Virus record (IMG/VR): IMGVR_UViG_3300042945_001689
Span: 32,001 to 96,000 of that record
Strand: one strand, 5' to 3'
Source of the DNA: a virus
DNA: 64,000 nt
Each line of letters begins with the position of its first letter. Positions within the stretch are counted from its first letter, which is position 1. The position numbers and the translations under genes were made by a program. Below the pieces are notes generated by a model, which saw only the letters and a list, made by a program, of their open reading frames with translations, did not search any database and was not told where the DNA came from. This document shows positions 33,245 to 64,000 of this stretch, piece after piece.

Positions 33245-33295
33245 GTTTAGACACGGACAAATCGGACATTTTTTGTGTGATCTGTACCACATTTA

Positions 33296-33339
33296 CCCGC
33301 GGGCCCCGACACGCCCGACCTCGTTGTGGGTTATCCACA
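33296..33339 (+). repeat. 44 bp block duplicated at 35895-35938 (one mismatch)
   Basis: CCCGCGGGCCCCGACACGCCCGACCTCGTTGTGRGTTATCCACA. Confidence 0.95.
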
Positions 33340-33434
33340 TGATGTACATCACATCCAGAATTGAGCGTGAGTTATCCACATGACCTACATCACATTTCAA
33401 AATGTCCGTTTTGGTATGATTACTGGTCAGTAGA

Positions 33435-33456
33435 TGTCAGACCCCCCTGCTATACT
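33435..33456 (+). promoter_or_regulatory. RecA-NDp/PafBC-like promoter 1
   Basis: TGTCAG-N10-TATACT. Confidence 0.7.
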
Positions 33457-33511
33457 TCTAGGTATAGAAGGTTGAAAAAGAAGTAAACCCCTTAAAGAAA
33501 GGAAGTCCAGA

Positions 33512-33721
33512 ATGACTTCACTAAATGTAAATGTAACTACTAAACAATATGAATTGCGTTGGTCTGGATTGCAGACTTCTAGCAATTACACTTCATCTAA
33601 TTTAGGTGGATTGTTCAATGATGAAAAGTCTATGAACGACTACTTAGATCAAAAAGTATCTGAGGGTTGGATAATCCTTGAAACTTCCGTTAATGTTTTT
33701 GAGCCTTTGGAGGTAAAGTAA
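33512..33721 (+). CDS. Small early protein
   Basis: GAAAGGA RBS, downstream of promoter. Confidence 0.7.
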   Translation: MTSLNVNVTTKQYELRWSGLQTSSNYTSSNLGGLFNDEKSMNDYLDQKVSEGWIILETSVNVFEPLEVK

Positions 33722-33885
33722 TGAACGCTATTTATTCACTAAAATCTATCTGCGGAAAGAATACTTTCTATGTAGATGCATATGATGTAAATTTTAATCC
33801 TAATGGTGCAACATGTTGCGATAATTGCAAATCAATTTTAATCTGCCGTGAGGCTTGGGACTTTCTCTATAAGGGGGATAAATAA

Positions 33886-34062
33886 ATGATAAAACTTAAA
33901 CTAACTACGTTTAATGGTACTACTAAGGATATTTCTTTCAGTACCTCGTCAGATGTGCGTACATATATTGACGCACTAAAAAATACACTACCTAAATCAG
34001 TAGTGTTGCAAGTATCTTGCGATACTCTTGGAATATCGGGTCACTTGAAAGGAAACAAATAA
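33886..34062 (+). CDS. Small early protein (58 aa), paralog of 32554-32730
   Basis: MIKLKLTTFNGTTKDISF... Confidence 0.65.
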   Translation: MIKLKLTTFNGTTKDISFSTSSDVRTYIDALKNTLPKSVVLQVSCDTLGISGHLKGNK

Positions 34063-34607
34063 TGAACCTTGATGAATATAAACAATTCGTAAAAACAAAA
34101 CGTCAGATGTCAAAAATTGACGCTATGGCAATTCTTGAAAATGCTAAAAAGCAAAATGAACTTATCCACTCTCAAAAAGAAAATGGTGAAAACTAATGAG
34201 CCTTGAACTACAAGACACACTGGCTATATGCCGTCAAATTCGTAACAATGATCGTGATAGTGGAACACACTACTTACTAGGTTATCTATGGGCTAACACT
34301 TCAGATAAAGAAAAGAAAAGAATCTATAAATTGTTCAAGGCAGACCTTGATGAGATTGGAGAAAAATAAAATGGAATTCGTAATTGTGTGCATGCATTGT
34401 TGGAAGAATACAAAATATGATGCGCTATCAGATGCAAGAGGGTTGCCGTGTAATCAATGCGGTAAAATCCTATAGGATGTGTTTAGACAAATAGTCTAAA
34501 AAAGCCCGCGGGCCCCTGTCCAAAATGTCCGATTTGTGATATGTGATGTAACACACATTGAGAGTTGTCCGATTTGTCTGATAATTACTTGACATAATGT
34601 GTGCAAA

Positions 34608-34629
34608 TGTCAGACCCCCCTGCTATAAT
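34608..34629 (+). promoter_or_regulatory. RecA-NDp/PafBC-like promoter 2
   Basis: TGTCAG-N10-TATAAT. Confidence 0.7.
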
Positions 34630-34682
34630 ATAAATATAAAGAAAACAAGCGGTAAAGAAATCCGCTAAGAAAGGTGGTCAAA

Positions 34683-34880
34683 ATGACTACATTAAATAAA
34701 ACTCAATGTGTGAATGGTAATTCTCACACCCCTAATCGTAAAGCAATTTCAATAATTGCTCACAATTTCGATTGTTCCGATTACTTTACATTTTGCGAAG
34801 TTTGCGAGCAAAACATTTCAGCATTCTCATTCTATGATGAGGATCGTGGAGATGTTCTCAGCAAATGGTCAATAGACTAA
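34683..34880 (+). CDS. Small early protein, possible Zn-binding
   Basis: GAAAGG RBS; CEVC plus other Cys/His. Confidence 0.6.
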   Translation: MTTLNKTQCVNGNSHTPNRKAISIIAHNFDCSDYFTFCEVCEQNISAFSFYDEDRGDVLSKWSID

Positions 34881-34941
34881 AAGGTCGTGTGATTAACCTC
34901 ACATTCCAAATGTCCTAAATGTCCGTTTTTGGATTTGATTA

Positions 34942-34963
34942 TGTCAGTCCAATCTGGTAAGAT
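34942..34963 (+). promoter_or_regulatory. RecA-NDp/PafBC-like promoter 3, with perfect CRP box at 34888-34903
   Basis: TGTCAG-N10-TAAGAT; TGTGA-TTAACC-TCACA upstream. Confidence 0.7.
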
Positions 34964-34996
34964 AAATACATAACAAAAAAAGAAAGAGGTGGCACT

Positions 34997-35200
34997 ATGT
35001 CAGCCAATGTTTACTCAGTCCAATCCCTACTAGTGGGAACCGAATATCAGTCTGCAACCTTAACGGGTAAGATCGTTAGAGCAGAAGCGCACCCTAAAGC
35101 CGTATGGTATGATGGTTGCGAAAGTTATCTCGTAGAAATCCGACCTGAAATCGGATTTAGAAATGCTTATCGCACCATAGCGGTAAAAACTTCTAATTAA
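34997..35200 (+). CDS. Small early protein
   Basis: GAGGTGG RBS. Confidence 0.7.
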   Translation: MSANVYSVQSLLVGTEYQSATLTGKIVRAEAHPKAVWYDGCESYLVEIRPEIGFRNAYRTIAVKTSN

Positions 35201-35271
35201 ATAAAATCGAAACAAGGGCAGTTTAGAGAGTGTTCTCGCCCGATGTCGTAAGTAAGAACTCTCACCAATAT

Positions 35272-35293
35272 TGTCAGTGCCCACTGATATAAT
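35272..35293 (+). promoter_or_regulatory. RecA-NDp/PafBC-like promoter 4
   Basis: TTGTCAGTG-N8-TATAAT, exact match to tTGTCRgtg-N8-TAnnnT. Confidence 0.75.
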
Positions 35294-35325
35294 TTAACTC
35301 AACTAAAGAATAGGAAATAAAAACA

Positions 35326-35532
35326 ATGAAAAAAATAACCCACTCGCTACAATTCGTTACCGAGGTTGATGAAAATCACCCAATAGGAATGCAACTGCTT
35401 TCACTTTCACGAGAAATGCAAAAAGAAATGCTTGAAGGAATGTTAAAAGAACTGGTTGCACCAAAAATTCAACCAATCCTTGACTTTCTTAATGAAGGCA
35501 ATTCATATGCAATTCTAAAGGTGGCAGACTAA
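35326..35532 (+). CDS. Small early protein
   Basis: ORF directly after promoter 4. Confidence 0.65.
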   Translation: MKKITHSLQFVTEVDENHPIGMQLLSLSREMQKEMLEGMLKELVAPKIQPILDFLNEGNSYAILKVAD

Positions 35533-35732
35533 TGATGACACGAAAAGACTATGTCGCAACTGCTGAAATTCTAAGCAATTATTTTGCTACATCTATTTTT
35601 GATGAGCAGGCAGAAATTTTATTTGCTGATTTGGTAGATGAATTTTCGCTAATGTTTGAAAGTGATAATCCAAGATTTGACGCAAATAAATTTGCTCTTG
35701 CTTGCTATAAAGAAATTGAGGTAAATGCGTGA
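35532..35732 (+). CDS. Small early protein
   Basis: MTRKDY...DNPRFD..KF..AC pattern seen in phage early genes. Confidence 0.7.
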   Translation: MMTRKDYVATAEILSNYFATSIFDEQAEILFADLVDEFSLMFESDNPRFDANKFALACYKEIEVNA

Positions 35733-35862
35733 ATAGATTTTTAACAACAATCGTTCAACTATTTTTAGCGGGTAGCGTTTTCATTTTATTTAAAATGATG
35801 TTACCAATGCTAAAAGAAGATTTTCAACAAATAAAAAATGATTTAACAAAATAAAAAAAATT

Positions 35863-35887
35863 CCTAAGCAAGAATAAAAACTGCTTA
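35863..35887 (+). repeat. Dispersed hairpin CCTRAGYA-loop-AAAC-TGCTYA, copy 1 of 6 (others at 38080, 38611, 38696, 39570, 40706)
   Basis: Six intergenic copies with compensatory and wobble changes in the stem. Confidence 0.85.
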
Positions 35888-36003
35888 AATTTTGCCCGCG
35901 GGCCCCGACACGCCCGACCTCGTTGTGAGTTATCCACAACTCCTTTACGTGTGGTTAAGATCACACCCCAAAACCTGCAAAACCCCCTTAATGAATTATG
36001 AGA

Positions 36004-36025
36004 TGTCAGTCAAATATGCTAGGAT
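36004..36025 (+). promoter_or_regulatory. RecA-NDp/PafBC-like promoter 5
   Basis: TGTCAG-N10-TAGGAT. Confidence 0.7.
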
Positions 36026-36052
36026 TGTATTATTCCAAAGAAAGGAAAACTA

Positions 36053-36247
36053 ATGGGAAACTTGTTTGATAAAATAGGAATTTGCTACACTTGCTATGAT
36101 GAGGGCGTTATCTTTACTGATATGGATAGCGATGGATTTATAAATGATTTCTGCGCTGATTGTGAAAAAGGTCAGGTATTTGCTAATGACTATTCAATAT
36201 GGTATGCTGAAAATGAAATGAACGAATACACTAAGGAGAACGCATAA
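36053..36247 (+). CDS. Small Zn-finger-like early protein
   Basis: CYTC...CADC; GAAAGGA RBS. Confidence 0.65.
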   Translation: MGNLFDKIGICYTCYDEGVIFTDMDSDGFINDFCADCEKGQVFANDYSIWYAENEMNEYTKENA

Positions 36248-36350
36248 TGACCTACTATGACGACTACTATGAAACTGATACGCCTACTGCCGTAGGTTGC
36301 TACTGCAAAATAAATTATCTATGCTCAGAATGTAAAGGAAGTTACAACTA

Positions 36351-36563
36351 ATGGAATATGAATATCTAATTACCTGCGCCTATGACGGGAACGCTCCGCA
36401 TTGGGAGCAACGCTATGAAAACGAATATGGCGCATGGGAAAACTTTTTCCTATTTACTGATTGGGGAATGGCTGATGAATACTCAACAGTTAATCTTTAC
36501 ACGCCAACTGGCAAATGTTATACAAAAAACTTTTATCGTAGTGGAATGGTGAGTGTAAAATAA
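36351..36563 (+). CDS. Small early protein
   Basis: AAAGGA RBS; acidic/aromatic. Confidence 0.65.
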   Translation: MEYEYLITCAYDGNAPHWEQRYENEYGAWENFFLFTDWGMADEYSTVNLYTPTGKCYTKNFYRSGMVSVK

Positions 36564-36757
36564 TGACACAGGAAAATTTTAAATATAGTTGGGAACGCTA
36601 TACTATTTGGGATACCCCCGAAGTTTGGGAAGAACCATGCGGTGATGAAAGGGCTGAATTGAATGGCGTTGTGTCTTGGGAGTTAGAAGATGAAGAGCCA
36701 TTTATTTCTTTAGAAGAAGATCCAGAAATGGAAGATTGGTTAATGAGTAATGTTTAA
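36563..36757 (+). CDS. Small highly acidic early protein
   Basis: Coupled start; very E/D/W-rich. Confidence 0.6.
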   Translation: MTQENFKYSWERYTIWDTPEVWEEPCGDERAELNGVVSWELEDEEPFISLEEDPEMEDWLMSNV

Positions 36758-37001
36758 GATGTAAAATATAAAAACCCCCGCGGGCGATGTCCGATTTGTC
36801 CAGAATCTCCCAGGATTTGATTTCTAAGATTATTTATGATATTATTTTTATATGTGGAAAAAAACAAGCGAAGAGTTACGTAGAATACAAGAGTTACGTA
36901 GATCTAATGCTGCTACCCCTTTACGGGACAAGTCTAAATATTCCCGAAAAAACAAGCATAAGAAACTTGACATTTATCTCCCTGAAAGGTAGAATATTAA
37001 T

Positions 37002-37730
37002 ATGAACCCAACTCACACCCTGAAACGCTCTAATGATAGGAAAGTAACTAATGCTGTCAGTCCTAATGGTAAGACTCCAACAATTGCTAACACCTTCGGA
37101 CTACCCGCAGGCAAAGAGTACTCCTGTCCTGGAGAAACCCCTACCTGCAAAAAAGTCTGCTACGCAGGAAAACTTGAAAAGATCTACAAAGGCGTAAAAG
37201 CCGTACTATTACATAATTGGGATTTGCTAAGCAATGCAGATTTTGATACCCAGGTACAATTGATAGATGAAATGATTATTGATTTCAAGTCTGATTGTGT
37301 AAAGAAAGACGCTCCTATGCTATTCCGTATCCACTGGGACGGAGATTTCTTCAATGATCAATACACTCTGGCCTGGAAGACAGTAATTGAAAGACACGAA
37401 GATGTTCAATTTTGGGTATACACGAGAGTAGCAAGCGCTGCTAGGATTCTTAAGGATGTTTCTAATTTAGGATTATATTATTCTACAGACGGCGATAACA
37501 AAAATATTGCACAAGGTCTCTCGGAAGAAGGAATAAAACTAGCATATCTTTCTACTACATTTGCGTTAGGTAAGGAAGATATGCTAAACTTGATAGGTAA
37601 GTCAGCCGTCAAGTGTCCTGAGAATAATAAAAAGATTCCCCTCATTTCTAAACAGGGGTCAGCGTGTGTTACTTGCGGTCAATGTGTATTTGAGCGTAAT
37701 AATATCCTATTTTCTAGTACTAAGAAATGA
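37002..37730 (+). CDS. GP88-like protein (radical-SAM-related Cys motif)
   Basis: FGLPAG..SCPG....CKKVCYA and FRIHWDGDF; TTGACA-17-TAGAAT promoter at 36967. Confidence 0.75.
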   Translation: MNPTHTLKRSNDRKVTNAVSPNGKTPTIANTFGLPAGKEYSCPGETPTCKKVCYAGKLEKIYKGVKAVLLHNWDLLSNADFDTQVQLIDEMIIDFKSDCVKKDAPMLFRIHWDGDFFNDQYTLAWKTVIERHEDVQFWVYTRVASAARILKDVSNLGLYYSTDGDNKNIAQGLSEEGIKLAYLSTTFALGKEDMLNLIGKSAVKCPENNKKIPLISKQGSACVTCGQCVFERNNILFSSTKK

Positions 37731-37891
37731 GGAACTATGGAAGTCCTAATTGTCCTATTTATCGGTATTGTCGTATTGTTGGCTGGCTTGGGACATAAGT
37801 GATTTATCTCACACCAAAACTAGGCTCTACGATTTGATATTTTCTAGCAACCCTGCTAGAATTGTAATAACAACAAAAGAAAGGAAGCAAA

Positions 37892-38050
37892 ATGGCAAAG
37901 TCAGCACTATACAAAGTAGGCGACACCTATACCTCTCAAAAGAGCAAGGTAACAGGAACCATCTTGGAGATTTCTCCAAACTCATCTGGCTCGGTGCGAG
38001 TTAAACTAGATGTAGAGGGAAATACCCGTTGGACAACTTGGAAGGCATAA
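37892..38050 (+). CDS. Small early protein (52 aa)
   Basis: MAKSALYKVGDTY...; GAAAGGA RBS; TTGATA-17-TAGAAT promoter. Confidence 0.65.
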   Translation: MAKSALYKVGDTYTSQKSKVTGTILEISPNSSGSVRVKLDVEGNTRWTTWKA

Positions 38051-38137
38051 GCCTTTAGGTTTAGCAAACGCTAACCAGACCTGAGCAAGTCTAGGATAAA
38101 CTGCTCACCAAACCCCTTACCCGAAAGGAACCCAAAT

Positions 38138-38560
38138 ATGGCACGACAGAAAGCAATCTCAGTAAAAATTGCAACAAGCAAAGTAATCAAGGCACTAGAA
38201 ACTCGTCTAGCAGAACTAGAAAAGAACTATGCCTCACAAGAAGCCAATGAAGCAAAGTATCAGAAGGCTTACAAGAATTGGCAGAAAGAACTACAAGAGT
38301 TCGCTATTGCTAATATCAAGAAGGCAGAAAACTTCCGCACATCATATCGTTCTTGGAATAAGACCTTGAACATTGACTACGACATCATCACAAACGAGGA
38401 CTCTTTACCAAAAGAGCCTGAGCGTGATTTTGAGCAACTCCATCAACACAGTTATCGTGAGATGAAAGAGGAAATGGAAAATGCTATCCGTATTCTCAAA
38501 ATGACAGATGAGGAAGTTGTAAGCACATCAACTTACAATGCTATTTCTCGTTATCTTTAA
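38138..38560 (+). CDS. Coiled-coil hypothetical protein
   Basis: GAAAGGA RBS, 140 aa. Confidence 0.75.
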   Translation: MARQKAISVKIATSKVIKALETRLAELEKNYASQEANEAKYQKAYKNWQKELQEFAIANIKKAENFRTSYRSWNKTLNIDYDIITNEDSLPKEPERDFEQLHQHSYREMKEEMENAIRILKMTDEEVVSTSTYNAISRYL

Positions 38561-38798
38561 CAAGATAGGCACACGGATAATTTAATTATCTATACGCCTT
38601 AGTTAAATCTCCTGAGTATGAGGCTAAACTGCTCACCAACTTTCATCTCTGCTAAGCCCCAGGCCATGATGCGTGGGTATGCCTGAGATGATCTTCCTGA
38701 GCATGAGGTTAAACTGCTCATTTTTGCCCCGCGGGGGATTGTGATAAACATCACATTCTTAAAAAATGTCCAGAAACGCCCAATTTAAGATTAGACAA

Positions 38799-38820
38799 TG
38801 TCAGCCCTATCCGCTAGAAT
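38799..38820 (+). promoter_or_regulatory. RecA-NDp/PafBC-like promoter 6, with perfect CRP box at 38740-38755
   Basis: TGTCAG-N10-TAGAAT; TGTGA-TAAACA-TCACA. Confidence 0.7.
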
Positions 38821-38851
38821 TATATTAACAACAACGAAAGGAACAACCCCT

Positions 38852-39145
38852 ATGGCAAATATGAAGAAAATTATGGATGCAACAAATGATGCTATCCATA
38901 CTAATGAAATTTCAGATGAGGCTTCAGGTCTTGTAGCAACTATCGCAGAAGGTCTGCCACTTGATGTAATTATCAAAGAGTTATACCAATACTCGCAAGC
39001 CTTATCTGCTATGGTACTAACAAAAGTTTTGCACACCATGTATGATGCCGAAACTATTGAGAACATGATAGATGGCTACCAAGATGAACTTACCGCAGAA
39101 ATGTTTGATGAGATTGAAAACTATCTTCAGAAAGAAGGAAACTAA
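38852..39145 (+). CDS. Acidic helical hypothetical protein
   Basis: GAAAGGA RBS favours start MANMKK at 38852. Confidence 0.65.
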   Translation: MANMKKIMDATNDAIHTNEISDEASGLVATIAEGLPLDVIIKELYQYSQALSAMVLTKVLHTMYDAETIENMIDGYQDELTAEMFDEIENYLQKEGN

Positions 39146-39146
39146 T

Positions 39147-39548
39147 ATGCCTATTCCAGATAACTCGTGTCTAGTAACTATCAACTCACTAAATGAGGAG
39201 ATTGCTTTACTAAAATCACAACTAGGAGATGCTCTTAGTAACTCACAAAGACACTATGAATACTATGAAAAACTGCAAAACTCTATTCGTTATTTCTTTG
39301 AGAGCAATCGTAGTGATGCTACTTGTGAGTTTGACATTGACAATGTAAATGCTTTCCTTGCTGAAAATAGCATTGAACCGCTAAAGCGTGAGTATCGTGT
39401 TGAGTTCCGAATTGAAGGAACAATTCTTGTGGAAGCAGAAAACGAAGATGAAGCACAAGATATAGTAAATGAACTTGATGTAACGCATTGGACTGCTGAA
39501 GTTGAAAATTTTGAAGCAGAAGCAACTAATGTAGAAGCAACCTACTAG
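39147..39548 (+). CDS. Acidic hypothetical protein
   Basis: GAAGGA RBS favours start MPIPD at 39147. Confidence 0.65.
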   Translation: MPIPDNSCLVTINSLNEEIALLKSQLGDALSNSQRHYEYYEKLQNSIRYFFESNRSDATCEFDIDNVNAFLAENSIEPLKREYRVEFRIEGTILVEAENEDEAQDIVNELDVTHWTAEVENFEAEATNVEATY

Positions 39549-39716
39549 TTTTTCCGTAGGGGAAAAAGTCCTGAGCATGACTAAAAACTGCTCACCACCC
39601 GCGGGGGTGTGACATTGATCACAGTGTGTTCTTTATCACATAACGATATTTTAGGATGATTTGACTTTGACTTTGATTTACGATAAAATTAGAATATCAA
39701 CTGAAAGGATAAAAAT

Positions 39717-40697
39717 ATGGCTCATGAAATCGAAATAATCAACGGTGAGGCTTCTTTTGCTTCATTGCGTGAACCTGCGTGGCATGGTTTAGGTACCGTG
39801 TTTACAGAAGAGAAAACAACTAGCGAAATGCTAGAGTTAGCAAATCTGCAAGACTGGAATGTAAGATTAGAAGAGGTCGAGGCTCCTGCTACTCTAACAT
39901 CAGACAAAAATTATTTCTATGTAGTACGAAATAATCCCGTAATCGAAAATCAAAACGATATTTTAGGTATTGTTGGAGAACGTTACAATGTATTGCAAAA
40001 TGAACAACTATTTGATTTTGCAGATGCAATGCTAGATGGTGGACGATGGGAAACCGCTGGCTCACTACGAGGTGGACGTGTAGTATTTGGTAGCCTTGCA
40101 CTAGATCGTGAAACCGTACTAGACCCTAATGGCGTTGCAGATAAAATCAACACCTATCTGATAGTCAATACATCACACGATGGTTCTATCTCAATTCAAG
40201 CAAGCGTTACCCCCGTACGTGTAGTGTGCGCTAACACATTGAACTTTGCTTTGCGTAGTGTAAAGCAATCCTTCAAGATTCGCCACACACAAACTGCTAA
40301 TGGTAAAGTACAATCCGCTAAGACTGCTCTAGGTATTGCTAACGCATACATGGACGACTTTAGCGTTATGGCAAACAAGATGATTCAGACTGAATTATCC
40401 GCTAAGCAATTCAACGATATTCTTCTCACCGCTTACCCTAAGCCTGATAAGGATTCTAAGCAAGCCCTAACCAAGTGGACAAATAAAATTGACACTCTCA
40501 ATGATATTTACACTGGCGAATTCAATCACATGATTTCGGGTAATGCGTGGGGCGCTCTTAATGCAATGACTGAACGCATTGACTGGTTCAGAGGTCAAGG
40601 TGAAACTAAGTTAGCAGCAGCAAGTGGTTTTGATGTTGCGACTAATGCAGAAAAAAATCGTTTAATGAAAATCGTAAATGATTTTGTAGCAGCGTAA
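39717..40697 (+). CDS. DUF932-family phage/plasmid protein
   Basis: MAHEIE...AWHGLG...NTSHDGS...TPVRVVCANTL; TTGACT-17-TAAAAT promoter at 39661. Confidence 0.85.
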   Translation: MAHEIEIINGEASFASLREPAWHGLGTVFTEEKTTSEMLELANLQDWNVRLEEVEAPATLTSDKNYFYVVRNNPVIENQNDILGIVGERYNVLQNEQLFDFADAMLDGGRWETAGSLRGGRVVFGSLALDRETVLDPNGVADKINTYLIVNTSHDGSISIQASVTPVRVVCANTLNFALRSVKQSFKIRHTQTANGKVQSAKTALGIANAYMDDFSVMANKMIQTELSAKQFNDILLTAYPKPDKDSKQALTKWTNKIDTLNDIYTGEFNHMISGNAWGALNAMTERIDWFRGQGETKLAAASGFDVATNAEKNRLMKIVNDFVAA

Positions 40698-40733
40698 ATA
40701 AATATCCTGAGCATGATATAAAACTGCTCATCT

Positions 40734-40810
40734 GATTCCATAGATCAATTGGTTAGATCGCCACCCTGTCACGGTGGAGGTTGCGGGTTCAAGTCCCGTT
40801 GGAATCGCCA
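40734..40810 (+). tRNA. tRNA-Asp(GTC) with encoded CCA
   Basis: Acceptor GATTCCA/TGGAATC, anticodon arm CCACC-CTGTCAC-GGTGG, GGTTCAAGTCC T-arm. Confidence 0.93.
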
Positions 40811-40949
40811 AAGGTTGGTGCAACACCCGCGGGGTTATCCACAGGTTATTCACATGATGAACGGTAAATCAAATTTTAAATCTAAAACATACTTTTTCCC
40901 TTTATTAAGAAGAGTTGACTTTTTCCTGGAATCAGGGTAAAATATTAAT

Positions 40950-41168
40950 ATGACCCAAAAAGTTGCAATTTACGAAATGAATTACTCTTGCTCTCCTGGC
41001 GGTATTGACTGCTGGGAAGCAACCATTCAAGGTTATGGTACTAGTACTACTGCCTCTGACTTTAAAAATGCTGGAGAGGCTCTTAATTGGGTACTTGACA
41101 GATACCCTGACGAAATGTTAGAATTGGTAGTAACTTCAATTCCTGCCTACGAAAAGGAATATGTATGA
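40950..41168 (+). CDS. Small early protein
   Basis: Leaderless after TTGACT-17-TAAAAT. Confidence 0.65.
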   Translation: MTQKVAIYEMNYSCSPGGIDCWEATIQGYGTSTTASDFKNAGEALNWVLDRYPDEMLELVVTSIPAYEKEYV

Positions 41169-41328
41169 CCCAAACAACCTACAAACCTTATACTATAAAT
41201 GAACTAGTCATGGCTATCTATGAAGATAACCTATCACATTTTGAATTTATGGAAAACATGAATGGGGGAGACTGTGATTGTTCTCTCCATAATACTATGA
41301 ATACTATTGTTGAATACTGGGGAGAATA

Positions 41329-41604
41329 ATGGGACGTAATCTAGCAGAAGAGTTAGCAAGCAATTCTTTATTGGATGAGATTAAATTAGATAATGCTATA
41401 GCGATACACTTACGGGGTAATCACTATCCCCCGATTCCTTTGACTATGGTCCAGCCATGTATCGAAGCAATTGACGCATATTGGGATGAGGATTTAGACC
41501 ATATGATTGATCTGCCAGAGGGCGTCTTCTATCGTGGTAGTGACAAGGCTCCTGCTTGGGCCATTATTGAATCACATCATCTTGGCGCTTGGTGTGCAGA
41601 TTGA
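41329..41604 (+). CDS. Hypothetical protein
   Basis: GGGAGA RBS; HLRGNHYPP. Confidence 0.7.
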   Translation: MGRNLAEELASNSLLDEIKLDNAIAIHLRGNHYPPIPLTMVQPCIEAIDAYWDEDLDHMIDLPEGVFYRGSDKAPAWAIIESHHLGAWCAD

Positions 41605-41781
41605 GGTGTACCTCATGTGGAAGTAAGATAACCTTTGAAAGCCAGGATGAAAGAGGATTCTGGTCCTGCCAGGATTGTGGGCAACCTACAGAAGAAGAGG
41701 GTTGACCTTATTAAGAAATGCTTGACATTTTCCCCAAAACCTGCTAAAATTTAATTACGAACCAAGTAGAAAGAACCCGAA

Positions 41782-42009
41782 ATGAAAACATCAAGACTAG
41801 ACCCATACTTACAAAAACAAGTTGAACTAGGCTCATCTGGCATAGACATTATGCATGGAGCATTAAAGACTATTATGCATGAGTTTGAAAACAAAACCTT
41901 TGAGGACAAATCATATGAAGAAGGATATATGGATTGTCTTGTTGACCTATACAGTTTGACCTACGATATCTCATTTGCTATCATGGATAATGAGAGAAAG
42001 GATACGTAA
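41782..42009 (+). CDS. Hypothetical protein
   Basis: Follows TTGACA-17-TAAAAT at 41722. Confidence 0.65.
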   Translation: MKTSRLDPYLQKQVELGSSGIDIMHGALKTIMHEFENKTFEDKSYEEGYMDCLVDLYSLTYDISFAIMDNERKDT

Positions 42010-42169
42010 TGGCAACATATCGTTTTATGACTGGTACTTGGTATGAGATTACCCTGCCAGATAACAAGGTAGATTTAGAGGGTTATTTCCCTGAAGAGTT
42101 ACATGATGCATACTTTGATAACTGTCTACCCGAAGATGTTCAAGTATACGAAGTTGAAGCGGACCATAT

Positions 42170-42364
42170 ATGGGACAATTGATTGAGTATATTAAGATAC
42201 ATCTAATTAGTTTAAGACAAGATTGGGAAGATGCTATTAATAACATAGACCTAATTGATTCTGAGTACCATCCTTCTGATGATTATTTTGAAGGAGCAAT
42301 TGAGGCAACAGAGCACCTGTTGTCAGTGGCAGAAGGTATACTTAATGGTGGAGAGGATAGATAA
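42170..42364 (+). CDS. Hypothetical protein
   Basis: ORF in the co-oriented early array. Confidence 0.55.
   Translation: MGQLIEYIKIHLISLRQDWEDAINNIDLIDSEYHPSDDYFEGAIEATEHLLSVAEGILNGGEDR
42321..42342 (+). promoter_or_regulatory. RecA-NDp/PafBC-like promoter 7 (inside the 3' end of the upstream ORF)
   Basis: TTGTCAGTG-N8-TATACT. Confidence 0.65.
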
Positions 42365-43011
42365 TGCCAAATTGGGTATACAATCAGGTATCTATCAAGG
42401 GACCTGAGAATCAGATAGCAGATATCAAGGAACAACTTAATCAACCATATACTAGTATTCAAGATAACTACAATCATGAAACTAAAAAATGGGAGAAAAA
42501 AGAGTTTGCATATAGTAATCCTATATTTGCATTTTGGAATATCCATCGACCATTAGACATGAAAACATATAATTTGCAAGAAGACCCCAATGCAGATAAA
42601 ACTAAACTATTTGATGGCAATAACTGGTATAACTGGAATGTTCGTGAGTGGGGTACTAAATGGGATGTTGGACTTAGAGACGATGAAAGATTTACTGATA
42701 CTGAGTTAATAGAAGAGACTAGTGGTTCATTAGTTTATTCTATACATACCGCTTGGGCTCCCCCTGTTCCTGCCATCCAAAAATTATCTAAGTTTGTGCC
42801 TGATTGTATTGTTACTCTTACCTATCAAGAAGAGCAAGGCTGGGGTGGCGAGGTAATTTATCTTGATGGCTTGGCTGTTATTGAGAAAGAATACGACTCT
42901 CTATGCAATGAGTGCGATGCAGAAAACACTATGGAATACTGTGAGCATTGCGAAGTTGAGACATGCACTGCTTGCGCCTTTCCTTCCTGTACCCATTTAG
43001 TACAGGCATAG
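42364..43011 (+). CDS. YubB/DUF1281-like ferredoxin-fold protein with C-terminal Cys cluster
   Basis: MPNW..N, WYNWNVREWGTKWD, TAWAPP motifs. Confidence 0.7.
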   Translation: MPNWVYNQVSIKGPENQIADIKEQLNQPYTSIQDNYNHETKKWEKKEFAYSNPIFAFWNIHRPLDMKTYNLQEDPNADKTKLFDGNNWYNWNVREWGTKWDVGLRDDERFTDTELIEETSGSLVYSIHTAWAPPVPAIQKLSKFVPDCIVTLTYQEEQGWGGEVIYLDGLAVIEKEYDSLCNECDAENTMEYCEHCEVETCTACAFPSCTHLVQA

Positions 43012-44228: not shown

Positions 44229-44344
44229 GGTTTGGGCAGATCCTCTACTTCCCTGGAGGATCGGCCTGATCGCGGCACCCGCGGGAAACTATATCAAGTG
44301 ACCGTGGTCCCCATGGCAAATCATATCAAATTGGACATATTGGA

Positions 44345-45170
44345 CAAACCTTATTTTCCCAAACCTTATTACGAAGACAATTATATTTTCCCAAAACCAT
44401 ATTACGAACATGATTATATTTTCCCAAACCCTTATTACGAAACATTAAAAAAAATCCCAGAAACTTTAGTGTTATAATAGTTTTATGAGTCCAAGAGTCC
44501 ATTTTGCTAAAGAAATGTATGGTCCTTATTTCCTAGAATCCAAACACTTTAGTTGTGATTGTGATAAAGATAAGAAGCCTATTCATCCTATACGTAAGTT
44601 TATAGATCGTCTCTTTCGTATCCCCGCCAAAGTAGAGGTCGAGCAGGTCCCTGAGCAGCCCAAGCCAAAGACGTCCAAGCCAGCCACCCAGGAAGAGATT
44701 GACGCCTACAATTTTCGGCGGGAACAACGTAAACAATCTAATCAATAATACCCCTATATAAAACATTACGATACCAAACCTTTTTTCCTGGTTTTCTTTT
44801 ATTTATCAAACCTTTATATAATTTTATTACGAAATATTTTAAAATATCCTAAAATTTGTTATCAAATTGTTATACATATTTGGCAACTTGACAAACCTTT
44901 ATATCTATGATATGGGGGATATGGGGTTTGGGATATAAGGTTTGAAGGTTTGATGGTTTGAAGATATAAGGTTTGGAGATAAGAGGTTTGGCCCCTAGAC
45001 ATTACGACCCCATCTGTCTAAGCGCTCCATAACCCATTACTCTCCACTTTCCTCCACTATACACCAAACCATACTATCTCAGTAACATTTATTTCATCCA
45101 AACCTCCCTATTACAATAGCCTTTATAGGTCATATAAGCCTATTTGCGAGGGGATATTAAACACCCAAAC
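44345..45170. repeat. Iteron-like repeat field
   Basis: Three ~33 bp units TATTTTCCCAAA(N)CCWTATTACGAA, further ATTACGA and AAACC copies, then a run of inverted GGTTTG copies. Confidence 0.75.
44485..44748 (+). CDS. Hypothetical protein
   Basis: TGTTATAAT promoter directly upstream (leaderless). Confidence 0.55.
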   Translation: MSPRVHFAKEMYGPYFLESKHFSCDCDKDKKPIHPIRKFIDRLFRIPAKVEVEQVPEQPKPKTSKPATQEEIDAYNFRREQRKQSNQ

Positions 45171-46111: not shown

Positions 46112-46145
46112 GGTGTTTACTGTTCTATTTACCGCCGAACTTTAA
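46112..46145. repeat. 34 bp direct repeat (second copy 47251-47284) flanking pstS
   Basis: GGTGTTTnnTGTTCTATTTACCGCCGAACTTTAA, last 25 bp identical. Confidence 0.9.
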
Positions 46146-47185
46146 GACTTAGATCCAATTAGTGCAATTTGCGCTTTTGCTATAGTTAGCGCCGAGCCTG
46201 TAAGTGGAGAGTATTCCAATTTTTTGGCTGAAAGAGTAGCGCATGAAGTGGCAGTATACTTAAAGAATCCTTTGATTATATTTGCCTTATCGCTTGCTTG
46301 TGTTGGTGCTAGGCCATAAGAGAACGAGGATATGTTGTAAGCCTTCTTATCCTTGTTGTTATAGTTTGGAACAATGATGCCATTTCCTTCAGGCTCAAAA
46401 TCACTTAGGAATGCAGAGGCTGCTTCAGATGTAGGTTGCATAAACACACCAGCACCATTTTCAATAAATGCCTTAGCAAGATTTTGATTTGTAGCATAAG
46501 AAGATTCCATATATCCTATTGCGCCATTTGTACGTGCAACCTGAGATGCCATAAGATTAGTTCCAGCAACAGAACTAAAAGTTCCTAAAGGTAATTGAGT
46601 TTTTGGAAATGCTTGTGTAAAAGACTTGTTTGGAGCCTTTGTCCAGATTGATGGAGCAATAGCACTAAGATATTCTGTTACTACTTGAGTTGTTCCAGAA
46701 CTATCTGCACGATAGAAAACCATTATTTGTAGGTTTGGTAGTTTTGGTTTTACTTTCTTTATAGTATTATCTTTAACTATTTGAGGATCATTCCACTTTG
46801 TTATATCCCCTGCAAAAATTTTAGCCAATGTTTTTTTCTTTAATTGAATCTTGCCTTTGTACCCATCAATTCTATATGCAATTGCAATAGGGCCTGCTAC
46901 TAATGGAACATACACAAAATCTTTTTCTTTATTAATTTGTGAAGCAGCAACATCACTTGCTGCAAAATCAACAGTGCCTAGCATAAACATATTAATTCCA
47001 GCACCTGATCCTAGTGCTGTGTATTCTATGCTATGTCCAGAGGCTTTTCCATATTGAACACGGCATTCATCAATAAAGTTAGCAATGAATGATGAACCAG
47101 AACCCGTAAGTTGATCTGCATGGGCTGGTTGGGCGATGAGTAAAGATGCAGCGATTGCTGCTACGATAAATCTAGAAGATTTCAT
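46142..47185 (-). CDS. pstS: Phosphate ABC transporter substrate-binding protein
   Basis: Signal peptide; GSGSSF, GSGAG, DFAASD, IFAGDITKWNDPQI, RADSSGTT, GAIGY.E motifs. Confidence 0.93.
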   Translation of the reverse strand: MKSSRFIVAAIAASLLIAQPAHADQLTGSGSSFIANFIDECRVQYGKASGHSIEYTALGSGAGINMFMLGTVDFAASDVAASQINKEKDFVYVPLVAGPIAIAYRIDGYKGKIQLKKKTLAKIFAGDITKWNDPQIVKDNTIKKVKPKLPNLQIMVFYRADSSGTTQVVTEYLSAIAPSIWTKAPNKSFTQAFPKTQLPLGTFSSVAGTNLMASQVARTNGAIGYMESSYATNQNLAKAFIENGAGVFMQPTSEAASAFLSDFEPEGNGIIVPNYNNKDKKAYNISSFSYGLAPTQASDKANIIKGFFKYTATSCATLSAKKLEYSPLTGSALTIAKAQIALIGSKS

Positions 47186-52353: not shown

Positions 52354-53310
52354 ATGGCAAACATAGTCTTTTTAGGCAATTTTGAAGTACCATATAGTAG
52401 CGAAAATCATCACGCTAACTCTTTAGAATCTTTAGGTCATACTGTTTGTAGATTGCAAGAAAGAACAATTAAGGATAGTTTTGTTCTTGAACAAGCAATG
52501 AACAGTGATCTCTTTATATGGGTGCATACACATGGCTGGAACACTCCAGGAAGAATCGGTATGGGCTACGTGCTAGAAGAGTTAAAGAAGGCCAACATCC
52601 CCACAATGACATATCATTTAGACCTATGGCTTGGTTTAGAAAGACAGAAAGACTTAGAAGAGGATGACTTCTATAAAACAATTGGACACTTCTTTGCAAC
52701 AGATAAATTAATGACTGATTGGTTTAATGAGAACACTAATGTAAAAGGACACTTCCTTCCTGCTGGAGTATATGATAAAGAGTGCTACATTCATCCAGAC
52801 TATGATGTTCAAGACTTTGATTACGATGTGATATTTGTTGGTAGTAAAAGATATCACCATGAATATCCATACAGACCGCAACTAATAGATCACTTAAGAA
52901 ATGTTTATGGTAAAAGATTTTTACATGTAGGTGGAGATGGTGATACTGGAACTGTCCGTGGAGATAAGTTAAATAGAATTTATGCTAAAAGTAAGATAGC
53001 AATTGGAGATAGTTTAAATATAGGATTTAACTATCCTTACTATACAAGCGATAGATTGTTTGAAAGTACTGGTCGTGGTGGATTTACTATCTACCCTCGT
53101 ATTAAAGGTCTTGAAGAATATTTTGAAGATGAAAGTGAAATTGTTTTTTATGAACATGGAAACTTAAAAGATTTAACAGATAAGATAGATGAATATCTTG
53201 AAGACAACCTTAGCAGGGAAGATATAAGATTAAATGGTCATGAAAGAACTAAGCAAGAGCATACATATATACATAGATGGGCAACTATACTAAAGGAGTT
53301 AAACATATGA
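52354..53310 (+). CDS. Glycosyltransferase (GT-B, CgeB/Glyco_trans_1_2-like)
   Basis: DVIFVGS, SDRLFE..G.G, HTYIHR. Confidence 0.8.
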   Translation: MANIVFLGNFEVPYSSENHHANSLESLGHTVCRLQERTIKDSFVLEQAMNSDLFIWVHTHGWNTPGRIGMGYVLEELKKANIPTMTYHLDLWLGLERQKDLEEDDFYKTIGHFFATDKLMTDWFNENTNVKGHFLPAGVYDKECYIHPDYDVQDFDYDVIFVGSKRYHHEYPYRPQLIDHLRNVYGKRFLHVGGDGDTGTVRGDKLNRIYAKSKIAIGDSLNIGFNYPYYTSDRLFESTGRGGFTIYPRIKGLEEYFEDESEIVFYEHGNLKDLTDKIDEYLEDNLSREDIRLNGHERTKQEHTYIHRWATILKELNI

Positions 53311-54059
53311 ACTTTATAGAAAGATCTGATATCGTATGGAAAACAGTTCCATATATTCGTCAAGGTGAAACCAGAAACTATGATTACAATCTTGAATTAA
53401 ACGAGCCATTGGCAAGTTGGGATGTTTGGGATTATTGGGAAAAAGAAAGAATACATAGCATGAAGACTCACCTTAAGAAAGGTGATGTATTTTTTGATAT
53501 TGGCACAGAATCTGGATGGTGTAATTTAGTTTATGCTGATATAGTTGGACCAGAAAACATGGTGCTTATTGAACCAACACCAGAGTTTTGGCCAAACATT
53601 CATGCTCTTTGGTATAAAAATTATTCAGTAGATCCGTTAGGAATGTATGCTGGATTAATTAGCGACAACACAACTGATACTCGCAAAGGTAGTGATCTTA
53701 ATGCGTGGGGAGAAGATTATCTTGGTGCAATTATTGATCGCAATAAGTATGTCTATATTCATGACAATTCTGCAAACATACCTATGATTAAATTAGATGA
53801 CTATGTTTCTGAAGTTGGCATTGTTCCAGATGTTTTAAATATTGATGTAGAAGGTGCAGAACTTCTTGTATTTAAAGGTGCAGAAAACACGTTAAGAAAT
53901 AATAATTTAAAAATATTTGTATCAATTCATGATGATTTAGGTCTGCGTGATTACAATACATCACCTGAAGATACTATATCTTATCTAGAATCTCTTGGAT
54001 ATGTTGGAGAATTTCTAGCAAAAAATCATGAAGCACATTGGTATTTTGAAAAGAAATAA
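53307..54059 (+). CDS. FkbM-family methyltransferase
   Basis: VFFDIG, IEP, KLDD, NIDVEGAELLV..G. Confidence 0.85.
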   Translation: MNFIERSDIVWKTVPYIRQGETRNYDYNLELNEPLASWDVWDYWEKERIHSMKTHLKKGDVFFDIGTESGWCNLVYADIVGPENMVLIEPTPEFWPNIHALWYKNYSVDPLGMYAGLISDNTTDTRKGSDLNAWGEDYLGAIIDRNKYVYIHDNSANIPMIKLDDYVSEVGIVPDVLNIDVEGAELLVFKGAENTLRNNNLKIFVSIHDDLGLRDYNTSPEDTISYLESLGYVGEFLAKNHEAHWYFEKK

Positions 54060-54061
54060 AA

Positions 54062-54910
54062 ATGTTAACTGCCTATATTTATTCTAAAGATCCACTTGAT
54101 TCTGCTAATGATAAATGGGATTACGGTCTATTAAAGCAAACATTTGAAAGAAATAAAATAAAAGAAGTTGTTGTTGATACATTGCCACAAGAAGAAAGAG
54201 CCTTTGTTGTTATTCCTGGACAAGGTAATGCTGGTAAAGAAGATAGTATAAATGATGAATTAAAAAATATAGGCAGAGTAGTTTTATTTATAACTGGAGA
54301 TGAAGGAAATTTATTTGATATTGATAAAATAACGCATGGAAATATATCTATTTGGGTTCAATGCCCGACAAGAAAACACCAAAAATATAATAAACTTCCT
54401 ATAGGTGCACCACATCATATTAAAGACAACATCCCCGAATATACAGAAAAAACACATACTGCATGCTTTGCTGGGCAAATTACACATAAGAGAAGACAGC
54501 AATTAGCAGACATAATGCCAAGTATTAAAGATTCTATTTATAAACCTACTGATGGCTTTGCCAAAGGCGATGAACCAAAAGAATATTATAAAAATTTGTT
54601 TAGTGCTAAAATTGCTCCCGCTCCTGCAGGCGCTGTAAGTATGGATTCATTTAGATTTTTTGAAGCAATTGAAATGCTTTGTCTGCCTATTGCAGACTTA
54701 AGAAACTCTAAAGGGCATAAAGATAATTTTTATCATTATATTTTTGATGAAACATTGCCATTTCCATCAACTAGTAATTGGTCAGAATTGCCAGAGATTA
54801 TTAAATCAATATTAAAGGATTATCCAAACAATATGCATCATGTAGTTTCTTGGTGGATTAAATATAAAAGAGATTTTGCAATTAAACTTATGAAGGAGAT
54901 ATATGCATAA
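54062..54910 (+). CDS. Exostosin/GT47-like glycosyltransferase
   Basis: FAGQ...RR, Y...L..AK....P.G....SFRFFEA....C.PI. Confidence 0.65.
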   Translation: MLTAYIYSKDPLDSANDKWDYGLLKQTFERNKIKEVVVDTLPQEERAFVVIPGQGNAGKEDSINDELKNIGRVVLFITGDEGNLFDIDKITHGNISIWVQCPTRKHQKYNKLPIGAPHHIKDNIPEYTEKTHTACFAGQITHKRRQQLADIMPSIKDSIYKPTDGFAKGDEPKEYYKNLFSAKIAPAPAGAVSMDSFRFFEAIEMLCLPIADLRNSKGHKDNFYHYIFDETLPFPSTSNWSELPEIIKSILKDYPNNMHHVVSWWIKYKRDFAIKLMKEIYA

Positions 54911-55664
54911 GAATGACGTAACAATTATTGTTGTAACATCAGTTCTTCCAGATCACCCAGACACTTCTATCCTTGATGAAACAATTAACTCCGTAAGATA
55001 TCATTTTCCTGATAACGAAATCATATTGCAGATAGATGGCTTGCGTGAAGAAAGACTAAATAGAAAAAATGATTATGATGAATTTAAGAACAGAGTGTTA
55101 TGGAAATGTTTGCATGAATGGAAAAATGTTTTACCAATAATTTTTGACAAACATAGTCATCAGACAACAATGATGAAAGAAACAATTGGTTTAATAACTA
55201 CATCAATATTATTGTATGTTGAGGGAGATGCTCCACTTGTTACTGAAGAGCCTATAGATTGGCAAAAATGTTTAGATATGTTTGAGTATAATGAAGCAAA
55301 AACAATTAGATTTCACTTTGAAGCATCTATTCCAAGATCACATGAGCATTTAATGTTTGGTCTTAGTGATGATTTTATGAAAACAGCACAATGGAGCCAA
55401 AGACCACACCTATCTTTAGTGTCGTATTATAGAAATGAGATTATGCCAAGATTAAAGGATCATTCGTTTATAGAAGACATTATCCATGGCGCTATACAAG
55501 ATGATATTTTGCCCTATGACGTATTTGATAAAGAAGGATGGGACAAACATAAACTTTGGATCTACCATCCAAAAAATAATATTAAAAGATCTTACCATTT
55601 AGACGGACGCAGGGGTACAAGAAAATTCACATCAGATGATGACGTATGGGGATATACTGAATGA
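54903..55664 (+). CDS. Probable GT-A fold glycosyltransferase
   Basis: VTIIVVTS...T..S, LYVEGD, HLDGR; located in a GT operon. Confidence 0.55.
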   Translation: MHKNDVTIIVVTSVLPDHPDTSILDETINSVRYHFPDNEIILQIDGLREERLNRKNDYDEFKNRVLWKCLHEWKNVLPIIFDKHSHQTTMMKETIGLITTSILLYVEGDAPLVTEEPIDWQKCLDMFEYNEAKTIRFHFEASIPRSHEHLMFGLSDDFMKTAQWSQRPHLSLVSYYRNEIMPRLKDHSFIEDIIHGAIQDDILPYDVFDKEGWDKHKLWIYHPKNNIKRSYHLDGRRGTRKFTSDDDVWGYTE

Positions 55665-61847: not shown

Positions 61848-61851
61848 AATA

Positions 61852-62730: not shown

Positions 62731-63742
62731 TGTTTAATAACACCCCAACTATTTTATTTTTTTCTAGTTTATCTACTAAATCTTTTGAGTTAGAATTATA
62801 CTCATTTTGTATTGATATATATGTGTGGTTTTTTGACCAGGCTATATCTCTATATTGTCCATGAGTTGATGTCCTTTTCATACGAGATTTTGTCTCAACA
62901 TTATATGATGATGTCTCTAGTGGTGTGTATATTTCTACAATGTTAGATTTATTTGGCATCATTAACATATTTAACAAACCGCTTCCAGTCAAACCGATTA
63001 GTGTTTTAACAGAACTAAAATATTTTATTTGATCTTCAAATGTTTTAAATGTTTCTGGAATAACTATCTCGCAACCATTATTTTTAAAAAATTCTTCAAT
63101 TAAATATTCGTTATTTTGTCTATCCATATTAATATATTTTTGTGATTTTACATTTCTTGACAAATATACAACTTTATTTGCAACTTCATCTTTTGAATAT
63201 TCGCTAAACAAATTAGAAAGCAAGTCAAGGTTTTGCAACTTAAGTTCTGTGTCTTTGAAGATGGCACAGTTATCTGTTTTAATAATAACATTTTTATTTG
63301 GATGTGATGTATTATTAATTTTATTAAGTTCTTGCATTCTTTTTGGAGAAGAGTTTATTATTGTAAAATTAATATGTTTTTTTTCTAATACTTCTAAAAA
63401 AAATTTAAAAAATGCTGGTCCATCTTTATCATAAAAATAACTAGGAATATCTGAAGAATCTAAAATGAATTCAAAATCACCCCACGAAGGACTAGACTTA
63501 AAATTTTTGTCTAAATATAAAATTTTTGCAAGATTGTCTATTAAATTATGATATATTCTTGGATGTAAACCTATAAGTATTTTATTGTTTGTTGAAGTTA
63601 GGTCTAATATACTATAATTGTTTTCTTTTATAAAATCATTATTCCTTGCTACATAAACATGGTTGTTAGACTGATACTCAAGGTATCTAATATTTTTATC
63701 ATAATTGATATGCATATGTATTGGAATATTATTTATTAACAT
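62717..63742 (-). CDS. GT61 (DUF563)-like glycosyltransferase
   Basis: VYLSR...R..NE...F.DQI..FSS...LIG..GSGL.N. Confidence 0.7.
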   Translation of the reverse strand: MLINNIPIHMHINYDKNIRYLEYQSNNHVYVARNNDFIKENNYSILDLTSTNNKILIGLHPRIYHNLIDNLAKILYLDKNFKSSPSWGDFEFILDSSDIPSYFYDKDGPAFFKFFLEVLEKKHINFTIINSSPKRMQELNKINNTSHPNKNVIIKTDNCAIFKDTELKLQNLDLLSNLFSEYSKDEVANKVVYLSRNVKSQKYINMDRQNNEYLIEEFFKNNGCEIVIPETFKTFEDQIKYFSSVKTLIGLTGSGLLNMLMMPNKSNIVEIYTPLETSSYNVETKSRMKRTSTHGQYRDIAWSKNHTYISIQNEYNSNSKDLVDKLEKNKIVGVLLNNESF

Positions 63743-64000
63743 TTAACCCTCAATTGTTAAATTTTCCCAGATTTCAGCCCACCTAGGCTTGGTCTTATGA
63801 TTGTTGAATTCTCTCGAAATGTTTCCCTTGTCTAAGTATACTCCGCCCCATACTCCATACTCTTTTTCAGATATACCGACAGCAAAGCAGGTTCTGGCAA
63901 CTGGGCAAGCAATGCATACATTATCTACTCCATGTCTAATGTTTGGATTATCTTCATATTTATCAAAGAATAAATTTGTATCATAATCAAGACAAGCAGC
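63743..64000 (-). CDS. whiB: WhiB-family transcription factor (5' end outside window)
   Basis: AACLDYDTNLFF...CIACPVARTC...EYGVWGG; not in the ORF track because the start is missing. Confidence 0.88.
   Translation of the reverse strand, partial: AACLDYDTNLFFDKYEDNPNIRHGVDNVCIACPVARTCFAVGISEKEYGVWGGVYLDKGNISREFNNHKTKPRWAEIWENLTIEG

Follow-up and report, generated by a model that had tools for sequence, protein, structure and literature searches.

In temperate phages wired to the SOS response, which are usually prophages, LexA or CI repression is relieved, and the single-stranded DNA (ssDNA)-sensing winged helix-turn-helix (wHTH)-WYL proteins CapW, BrxR and DriD link phage attack or DNA damage to transcription. 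The closest described counterpart of the elements studied here is the PafBC promoter of Mycobacterium and other Actinobacteria, also referred to as the '-26 element', RecA-NDp or recA P1 type. Its published motif, tGTCgg(N10)tA(N3)T, has the 5' part at -23 to -28 and no -35 element (PMC8635444). The GTC triplet is read by R46 and R50 of PafB, PafBC is located between the DNA and sigma region 4, and formation of the complex is stimulated by ssDNA (PMC8635444; PMC11804915). In this known system the upstream box at this position activates transcription, and a parallel has been drawn between PafBC promoters and the middle promoters of phage T4 (PMC8635444). Here, seven promoter-like sites of this geometry (P1 to P7) were analyzed in a 64-kb window (bases 32001-96000) of the 108,124-bp IMG/VR virus record IMGVR_UViG_3300042945_001689, which is rated 99% complete; positions are those of the window unless given as genome positions. 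PafBC-type promoters themselves are already known, and no description of their multi-copy use by a phage lineage was found in the literature. The phage probably borrows the PafBC switch of its host.

The pattern TGTCAG-N10-TANNNT matched seven times in the window, always on the plus strand, at 33435, 34608, 34942, 35272, 36004, 38799 and 42321. These are precisely the sites that a first-pass annotation of the stretch had listed, with the same spacing and strand. In 100 dinucleotide-preserving shuffles the mean number of matches was 0.76 (sd 0.83, largest 4) and none of the shuffles reached seven, while the rest of the 108-kb genome added one match (genome 96607) that looks like chance. When one mismatch was tolerated, 23 matches were found versus 22.7 expected, and the enrichment therefore resides in the exact motif. 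All of the sites are intergenic except 42321, which falls within the final 44 nt of the open reading frame (ORF) 42170-42364. Downstream of every site there is a Shine-Dalgarno sequence, and the ATG begins 15-49 nt from the predicted +1 (21-49 nt by another count of leader lengths), in agreement with the annotated position of each site just upstream of an ORF with a ribosome-binding site. The box occupies -28 to -23 and its distance to the -10 element is 10 nt at all seven sites, five of which also have a TG at -15/-14 (extended -10, TGn). The match to TTGACA at 17-bp spacing was 1, 3, 4, 2, 1, 5 and 0 of 6 for P1 to P7, and thus 3/6 or less at five of the seven, the exceptions being P3 (TTGATT) and P6 (TAGACA). 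The two sites singled out earlier as full matches, 35272 and 42321, both read TTGTCAGTG. Judged by their sequence, all seven are genuine promoters and form a class of their own.

The seven predicted promoters differ in their details. P1 (33435-33456; TGTCAG ACCCCCCTGC TATACT) has an extended -10 and a +1 at ~33463, and precedes six small genes (33512-34475). P2 (34608-34629; TGTCAG ACCCCCCTGC TATAAT) has an extended -10 and T(-1)A(+1) with the +1 at 34636, followed by the gene at 34683-34880. P3 (34942-34963; TGTCAG TCCAATCTGG TAAGAT) combines an extended -10 with its weak -35, and its +1 at 34970 lies ahead of the gene at 34997-35200. An extended -10 without a -35 is found both in P4 (35272-35293; tTGTCAGTG CCCACTGA TATAAT; +1 ~35300), which precedes the genes at 35326-35532, 35532-35732 and 35729-35854, and in P5 (36004-36025; TGTCAG TCAAATATGC TAGGAT; +1 36032), which precedes those at 36053-37005. 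P6 (38799-38820; TGTCAG CCCTATCCGC TAGAAT; +1 38827; genes 38852-39145 and 39147-39548) is without TG but has a near-consensus -35, TAGACA at 17 bp, and was therefore classed as a hybrid type; the relative L093 has the same TGTCAGCCCTATC promoter. P7 (42321-42342; tTGTCAGTGGC AGAAGG TATACT) has neither TG nor -35, a predicted +1 at 42349, and is located 21 nt before the ATG of the gene at 42364-43011 (215 aa, DUF1281_C-like).

All seven sites are in the only long plus-strand block (~33.4-46 kb), which consists of small ORFan genes with mostly acidic products, and the early ORFans had no match in PHROGs, Pfam or the protein atlas. About 15 of them (34-72 aa) form the plus-strand cassettes at 33512-37005, for which P1 to P5 (33435-36004) are the sole promoters and, in these first 3.5 kb of the block, the only promoter-like signals. 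The small-gene cassettes behind the promoters are probably early genes and their products may, speculatively, be viewed as takeover or anti-defence proteins.

The first-pass annotation had assigned the sites the geometry of the PafBC / RecA-NDp promoter, and core, position and spacing are those of the published motif (PMC8635444). Both sets have TGTCRG at -28 to -23, exactly 10 nt before TAnnnT; in both, GTC is near-invariant and positions -24/-23 are looser. The missing -35 consensus, a further mark of PafBC promoters, is seen in the matrix of the phage sites but not at every site, with P3, P6 and many sites in relatives departing from it. The same motif is present at recA of the candidate hosts described below. 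Unlike the PafBC promoters, the phage sites occur as seven copies before ORFan early genes, usually with an extended -10 and with a run of C or G after the box. The phage set further differs in that some members have a true -35 (hybrids) and a subset has a TGTCC box 32 nt upstream.

The class is conserved among the relatives of the phage, of which IMG/VR holds ~600. In early regions retrieved via the DUF932 protein of the block (50-86% identity), the motif was clustered on the coding strand with 8, 8, 8, 5 and 3 sites per locus, and relatives of higher GC content use TGTCGG. In whole records of relatives, 8/9, 8/9 and 4/6 of the motif matches fell within early regions of 3.5-7 kb, compared to 0-2 for reversed-pattern controls. 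IMG/VR was also scanned with TGTCAGACCCC-N5-TAnnnT and 80 of the listed loci (712 kb) were analyzed, which contained at least 454 sites of the general motif. The matrix of 444 non-redundant sites from these loci was flat at -36 to -32, without a -35 signal, and showed A/T at -31 to -29, TGTCAG at -28 to -23, S-S at -21/-20, G at -14 in 78% of the sites and a -10 of the form TAtaaT; the closest relatives also conserve T(-1)A(+1). A Shine-Dalgarno sequence, start codon and ORF followed 75% of 674 lineage sites versus 15% of random positions, with the distance to the start codon peaking 20-39 nt after the -10. In a set of 879 gene-proximal extended -10 sites (TGnTAnnnT) from 147 related loci, TGTCRG was present at -28 to -23 in 418. 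Single mismatches in this set were found at -24 (7) and -23 (13), compared to 1, 1, 0 and 1 at the four positions of TGTC, a near-invariance that fits readout of GTC by PafB.

The motif was likewise retained before orthologous genes at 32-74% protein identity. A TGTCRG promoter was found in 43 of 54 distinct upstream regions of homologues of gene 34997, in 21/33 for gene 35326 (P4) and, within 130 nt upstream, in 32/39 for gene 42364 (P7), and the promoter type was kept in 6/12 for gene 34683 (P2); because most loci of this test had been retrieved by the motif, the fractions are somewhat too high. In the DUF932 set, which is free of this bias, the motif stood directly before DUF932 in 4 of 11 loci. 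A chance match was considered for P7, which lies within an ORF, and was ruled out by the orthologue test; since it is conserved before homologues of the downstream gene, P7 is probably a real promoter. A weak T/G preference at -35 in close relatives was rejected as a true -35 element, as it was partly terminator U-tract and disappeared in the larger set. In the relatives L098, L100 and L102, GC-rich hairpins (GCGACACGCC...GGCGTGTCG) and a T-run are placed directly upstream of TGTCRG boxes, and the terminator U-tract supplies the T-rich -35 region, resulting in a very compact terminator-promoter junction.

The GC content of the phage (~35%) at first sight speaks against an actinobacterial host. 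The phage, however, encodes a bona fide WhiB-like protein, which argues for such a host. The gene (genome 95405-95722, corresponding to window 63405-63722 on the minus strand; feature entry 63405..64000) matches Pfam Whib with an E value of 1.4e-13 and has the C-X25-C-X2-C-X5-C spacing and GVWGG; it serves as a host marker and is no part of the promoters. The phage also encodes a GP88-family protein and a portal with 47% identity to those of Streptomyces BE-cluster phages, its closest cultured relatives by portal. Metagenome-assembled genomes (MAGs) from the Rimov reservoir and Lake Mendota contain WhiB-bearing look-alike contigs, which are mostly mis-binned phage and were used as a habitat clue only. 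Together, WhiB, GP88, the portal and the lake MAG contigs indicate an uncultured freshwater actinophage. The predicted host is an actinobacterium, an assignment based on WhiB, habitat and GC content. The phage PstS was tried as a host pointer and discarded, as its 33-44% identity to all kinds of actinobacteria was not discriminating.

WYL domains were present in 398 of 401 sampled Actinomycetes genomes, a tally that includes 10 unpublished genomes, which were used for this count alone; the class is the one to which a genuine WhiB-bearing Quadrisphaera MAG belongs. Streamlined actinobacterial genomes, of which 20 were complete (1.3-1.5 Mb, 43-48% GC), were taken as candidate hosts and presumably belong to the Nanopelagicales (acI), whose properties they fit. 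G234, G266 and G281 each contain two adjacent WYL genes. The PafB of G266 matches 7p5x_AY over its full length (E 2.7e-36) with the DNA-reading arginines R46 and R50 conserved (ERMFERDK), and its PafC matches 7p5x_AX (E 6e-30). A third WYL protein of 735 aa is also present in candidate hosts. Upstream of recA, TGTCAGTGGC (or TGTCGGAGGC)-N6-TAnnnT and a LexA box were found in all six small genomes examined, and the distance between box and -10 equals that of the phage. Both features that had been named for confirmation in candidate hosts, pafBC and the motif at recA, are present, the former as a tandem pafB-pafC pair.

Genome-wide counts of the bare motif in the candidate hosts were barely above controls, and the matches cluster in one island of 20-40 kb in each of G234, G266 and G281. 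As the ATG follows 6-7 nt after the -10 at 17 of 24 motif matches in the island, these are probably promoters of leaderless genes. They serve genes for a Rce1/Abi-like CAAX protease, a trypsin-like peptidase, N6/N4 and C5 DNA methylases, a GHKL ATPase, a SNF2 helicase and a RecB-like nuclease, and the island may be a PafBC-controlled defence or DNA-processing island. Outside the island the same promoter type was found at a DEDDh exonuclease gene and at a DUF6504 gene that also has a LexA box. Plausible hosts appear to make genuine, frequent use of this promoter type, among other places at the reference PafBC target recA. The island loci are L145-L146 (G266:C1:409000-436000), L149-L150 (G281) and L151-L152 (G234), with 6-8 TGTCRG-N10-TAnnnT promoters per island. 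A tblastn search of all phage ORFs against the candidate-host islands showed no meaningful link.

In core, position and spacing the phage sites are identical to the host PafBC-type promoters, the candidate hosts have PafBC, and the phage is without a homologue of it: neither a WYL domain nor a PafB-like reading frame was found in the phage. On balance, we lean slightly towards recruitment of the host RNA polymerase with SigA to the phage promoters by host PafBC, with expression following ssDNA. In such a mechanism, a -10 element, usually extended by TGn, would be combined with TGTCAG at -28 to -23 in place of the -35 hexamer, and the housekeeping RNA polymerase of the host would read the sites only with the help of the host heterodimer PafBC. 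In this 'sigma adaptation', the GTC of the box would be recognized by PafB, and sigma region 4 would be held by PafC. As ssDNA activates PafBC, the cassettes of small early genes would be gated on ssDNA, which could come from injection, end resection, restriction damage or replication driven by the phage RecA and DnaE. Outside the window (genome 4537-11952, L394), the phage has genes for four proteins that generate or process ssDNA, namely RecA, a DnaE-type Pol III alpha (1091 aa), DnaG primase and DnaB helicase. What we infer in this account is that PafBC binds the sites, that expression depends on ssDNA, when the genes are expressed and what their products do.

As in the SOS-wired phages, expression would be coupled to ssDNA or damage sensing by the host, but the proposed route is activation by PafBC. 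Moreover, no integrase was detected among the phage proteins scanned and no LexA box (CGAAC-N4-GTTCG of the actinobacterial SOS box TCGAAC-N4-GTTCGA) was present in the window, even with one mismatch allowed. CapW, BrxR and DriD control host defence or repair genes, whereas here the phage would own the target promoters. We see an even chance that, in an abundant lineage of lake actinophages, the -35 of most early promoters was replaced by a PafBC site, so that the alarm of the host would be the 'go' signal of the phage. If true, this would be the first phage early programme run by promoter mimicry of a host WYL-type DNA-damage activator, in contrast to control by a factor of the phage itself or by derepression. 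PafBC would thereby acquire a part in the conflict between phages and the most abundant bacteria of fresh water, and it would be understood how a lytic phage senses cutting or replication of its own or the host DNA. The hundreds of natural promoter variants, including the -35 hybrids, would then be available for dissecting sigma adaptation.

Several observations weigh against control by host PafBC. PafBC promoters are defined by the lack of a -35, but a good TTGACA is found exactly 17-18 bp from the -10 at P6 and at many sites of relatives, where the frequent form TTGACA-N1-2-TGTCRG provides a perfect -35 at this spacing. Genes that have canonical promoters in this phage have TGTCRG promoters in relatives, as seen for gene 37892 (43/60), DUF932 (55/71, of which 17 hybrids), gene 41782 (34/43) and GP88 (18/45), and the reverse switch was observed for gene 43074. 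The hybrids and the canonical promoters before the same genes show two modes that interconvert in evolution. The same genes are thus served by both promoter types, which probably operate in a common phase; this speaks against a switch that responds strictly to damage and against calling these the 'first genes'. As the same genes use ordinary promoters in some genomes, gating by ssDNA is not essential. Nor would a need for ssDNA seem well suited to the genes that a lytic phage expresses first of all. The phage boxes favour an ACCCC or GGGG extension, whereas the host recA site has TGGC.

The distribution of the motif points in the same direction. In IMG/VR scans with the ACCCC extension and with the recA-type TTGTCAGTGGC, 96/120 and 63/103 of the multi-site loci shared proteins with the phage, among the matches listed; unrelated contigs had single matches only, and multi-copy use was confined to this one lineage, both within those same matches. 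The motif was not enriched in phiC31, L5, TM4 or two Streptomyces BE phages, and the idea that it is a general feature of actinophages was rejected. The confinement to one lineage would be explained equally well by a factor encoded by the phage, and keeps such a factor in play.

This alternative, in which a phage-encoded factor retargets the host sigma-A RNA polymerase to TGTCAG-N10-TAnnnT by sigma appropriation of the MotA/AsiA kind, is unlikely, although it survives best among the rival explanations. The role could fall to small early proteins (one or several) expressed from the block's canonical TTGACA-N17 promoters, or to a PafB mimic without detectable similarity. A box and a -10 at a fixed short spacing are also the architecture of the T4 middle promoters (PMC8635444), in which the MotA box at -30 likewise takes the place of the -35, and the coexistence of middle and ordinary early promoters in T4 resembles the two promoter classes within the phage block. 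Many small acidic early proteins with no assigned function are conserved across the lineage, and the ACCCC/GGGG extensions are a departure from the host recA site. On the other hand, T4 encodes the activator and co-activator MotA and AsiA that remodel sigma region 4, while no sigma factor, HTH, WYL, MotA-like or AsiA-like domain was detected among the ~70 phage proteins scanned, a result that leaves room for an unrecognisable factor. The most conserved of the small proteins are themselves encoded behind TGTCAG promoters. In contrast to the MotA box, the phage box would be the site of the host's own activator, and host PafBC would be expected to bind it anyway. That core, spacing and mismatch pattern should coincide with those of the host recA and DNA-processing promoters would be a remarkable coincidence. 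The first-pass annotation had offered a phage-encoded mimic as its alternative; as a WYL or PafB-like gene it was not found, and it stays in consideration through the lineage confinement.

It is quite unlikely that the sites are constitutive extended -10 (TGn) promoters to which TGTCAG is a modulatory add-on. The box could then serve as an operator for PafBC or some other protein, through which transcription is tuned or repressed, or as a decoy, where the replicating phage genome would soak up PafBC and blunt the PafBC-driven response of the host. The box at this position activates in the known system (PMC8635444), which does not favour such a role. The TG at -15/-14 of five of the seven sites and the frequent G at -14 across the lineage would suit a constitutive promoter, as would the hybrids with a full TTGACA and the way TGTCRG and canonical promoters replace each other upstream of a given gene. 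For extended -10 promoters a -35 can be dispensable. For the decoy version, the defence/DNA-processing island of the candidate hosts, which uses the same promoter type, would be a possible target. However, P6 and P7 keep the box without the TG, and hundreds of sites have a near-invariant TGTC at a constant distance from the -10, as is typical of an element needed for initiation.

That another host factor reads the box without involvement of PafBC (a different winged-helix/WYL regulator, or a feature of sigma-A, RbpA or CarD) is very unlikely: the third WYL protein, the host bare-motif counts that barely exceed controls and the many motif-bearing island genes that are not classical repair genes would allow for it, but recA, as the reference PafBC target, carries the motif and a LexA box in 6/6 genomes, the recognition arginines of PafB are conserved, and we know of no factor other than PafBC that uses this geometry.

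Beside the TGTCAG class, canonical promoters (TTGACA/TTGACT-N17-TAnAAT without a TGTCAG box) are present on the plus strand between 36967 and 45721, at 36967, 37834, 39661, 40915, 41095, 41722, 43013, 43407 and 45693. From 36967 on, ordinary promoters are thus the rule and P6 and P7 are interspersed among them. A second box, AAATGTCCG, was noted in a part of the TGTCAG-type sites, whose TGTCC precedes the TGTCAG box by exactly 32 nt, equal to three helical turns. This second box was counted at 7/47 and 40/653 phage sites and at 0/28 host sites, and is often preceded by ATCACAT. In the window it is found at 33403-33407 (P1) and 38767-38771 (P6), and also at 34920 and 34566; it is further present in the relatives L093 and L097. 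LexA boxes (CGAAC-N4-GTTCG) were observed in some related phages, at L099:7488, L101:8410 and 10288, L103:10285 and others, and in L099 and L101 a LexA box is positioned ~30 nt upstream of a TGTCGG promoter.

The remaining genes include those of a tailed phage, namely portal, prohead protease, HK97-type capsid protein, fibres and a class II ribonucleotide reductase. Auxiliary genes at 46142-47185 (minus), 58234-58725 (minus), 52354-56704 (plus) and 60480-63742 (minus) encode, among their products, a PstS-like phosphate-binding protein, a pyrimidine-dimer glycosylase of the T4 endonuclease V type and a glycosyltransferase/methyltransferase/HAD-nucleotidyltransferase cluster.

The block also contains several kinds of repeats. 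The E. coli-type DnaA box GTTATCCACA occurs three times upstream of P1 and P5 (33330-33339, 33371-33380 and 35930-35938), and DnaA-type boxes are part of a 48-nt repeat (33292-33339 and 35891-35938) that starts with the palindrome CCCGCGGG. An intergenic element, TCCTGAGCATGA..AAACTGCTCA, is repeated between the early cassettes at 38593-38635, 38678-38720, 39552-39594, 40688-40730 and 35856-35885. Three tandem 33-nt repeats (ACCTTATTACGAA...TATATTTTCCCAAA) are located at 44343-44441, with more copies at 41705 and 44821, and inverted GGTTTGA repeats were found at 44932-44993. The tandem 33-nt and GGTTTGA repeats resemble iterons and may mark a replication origin.

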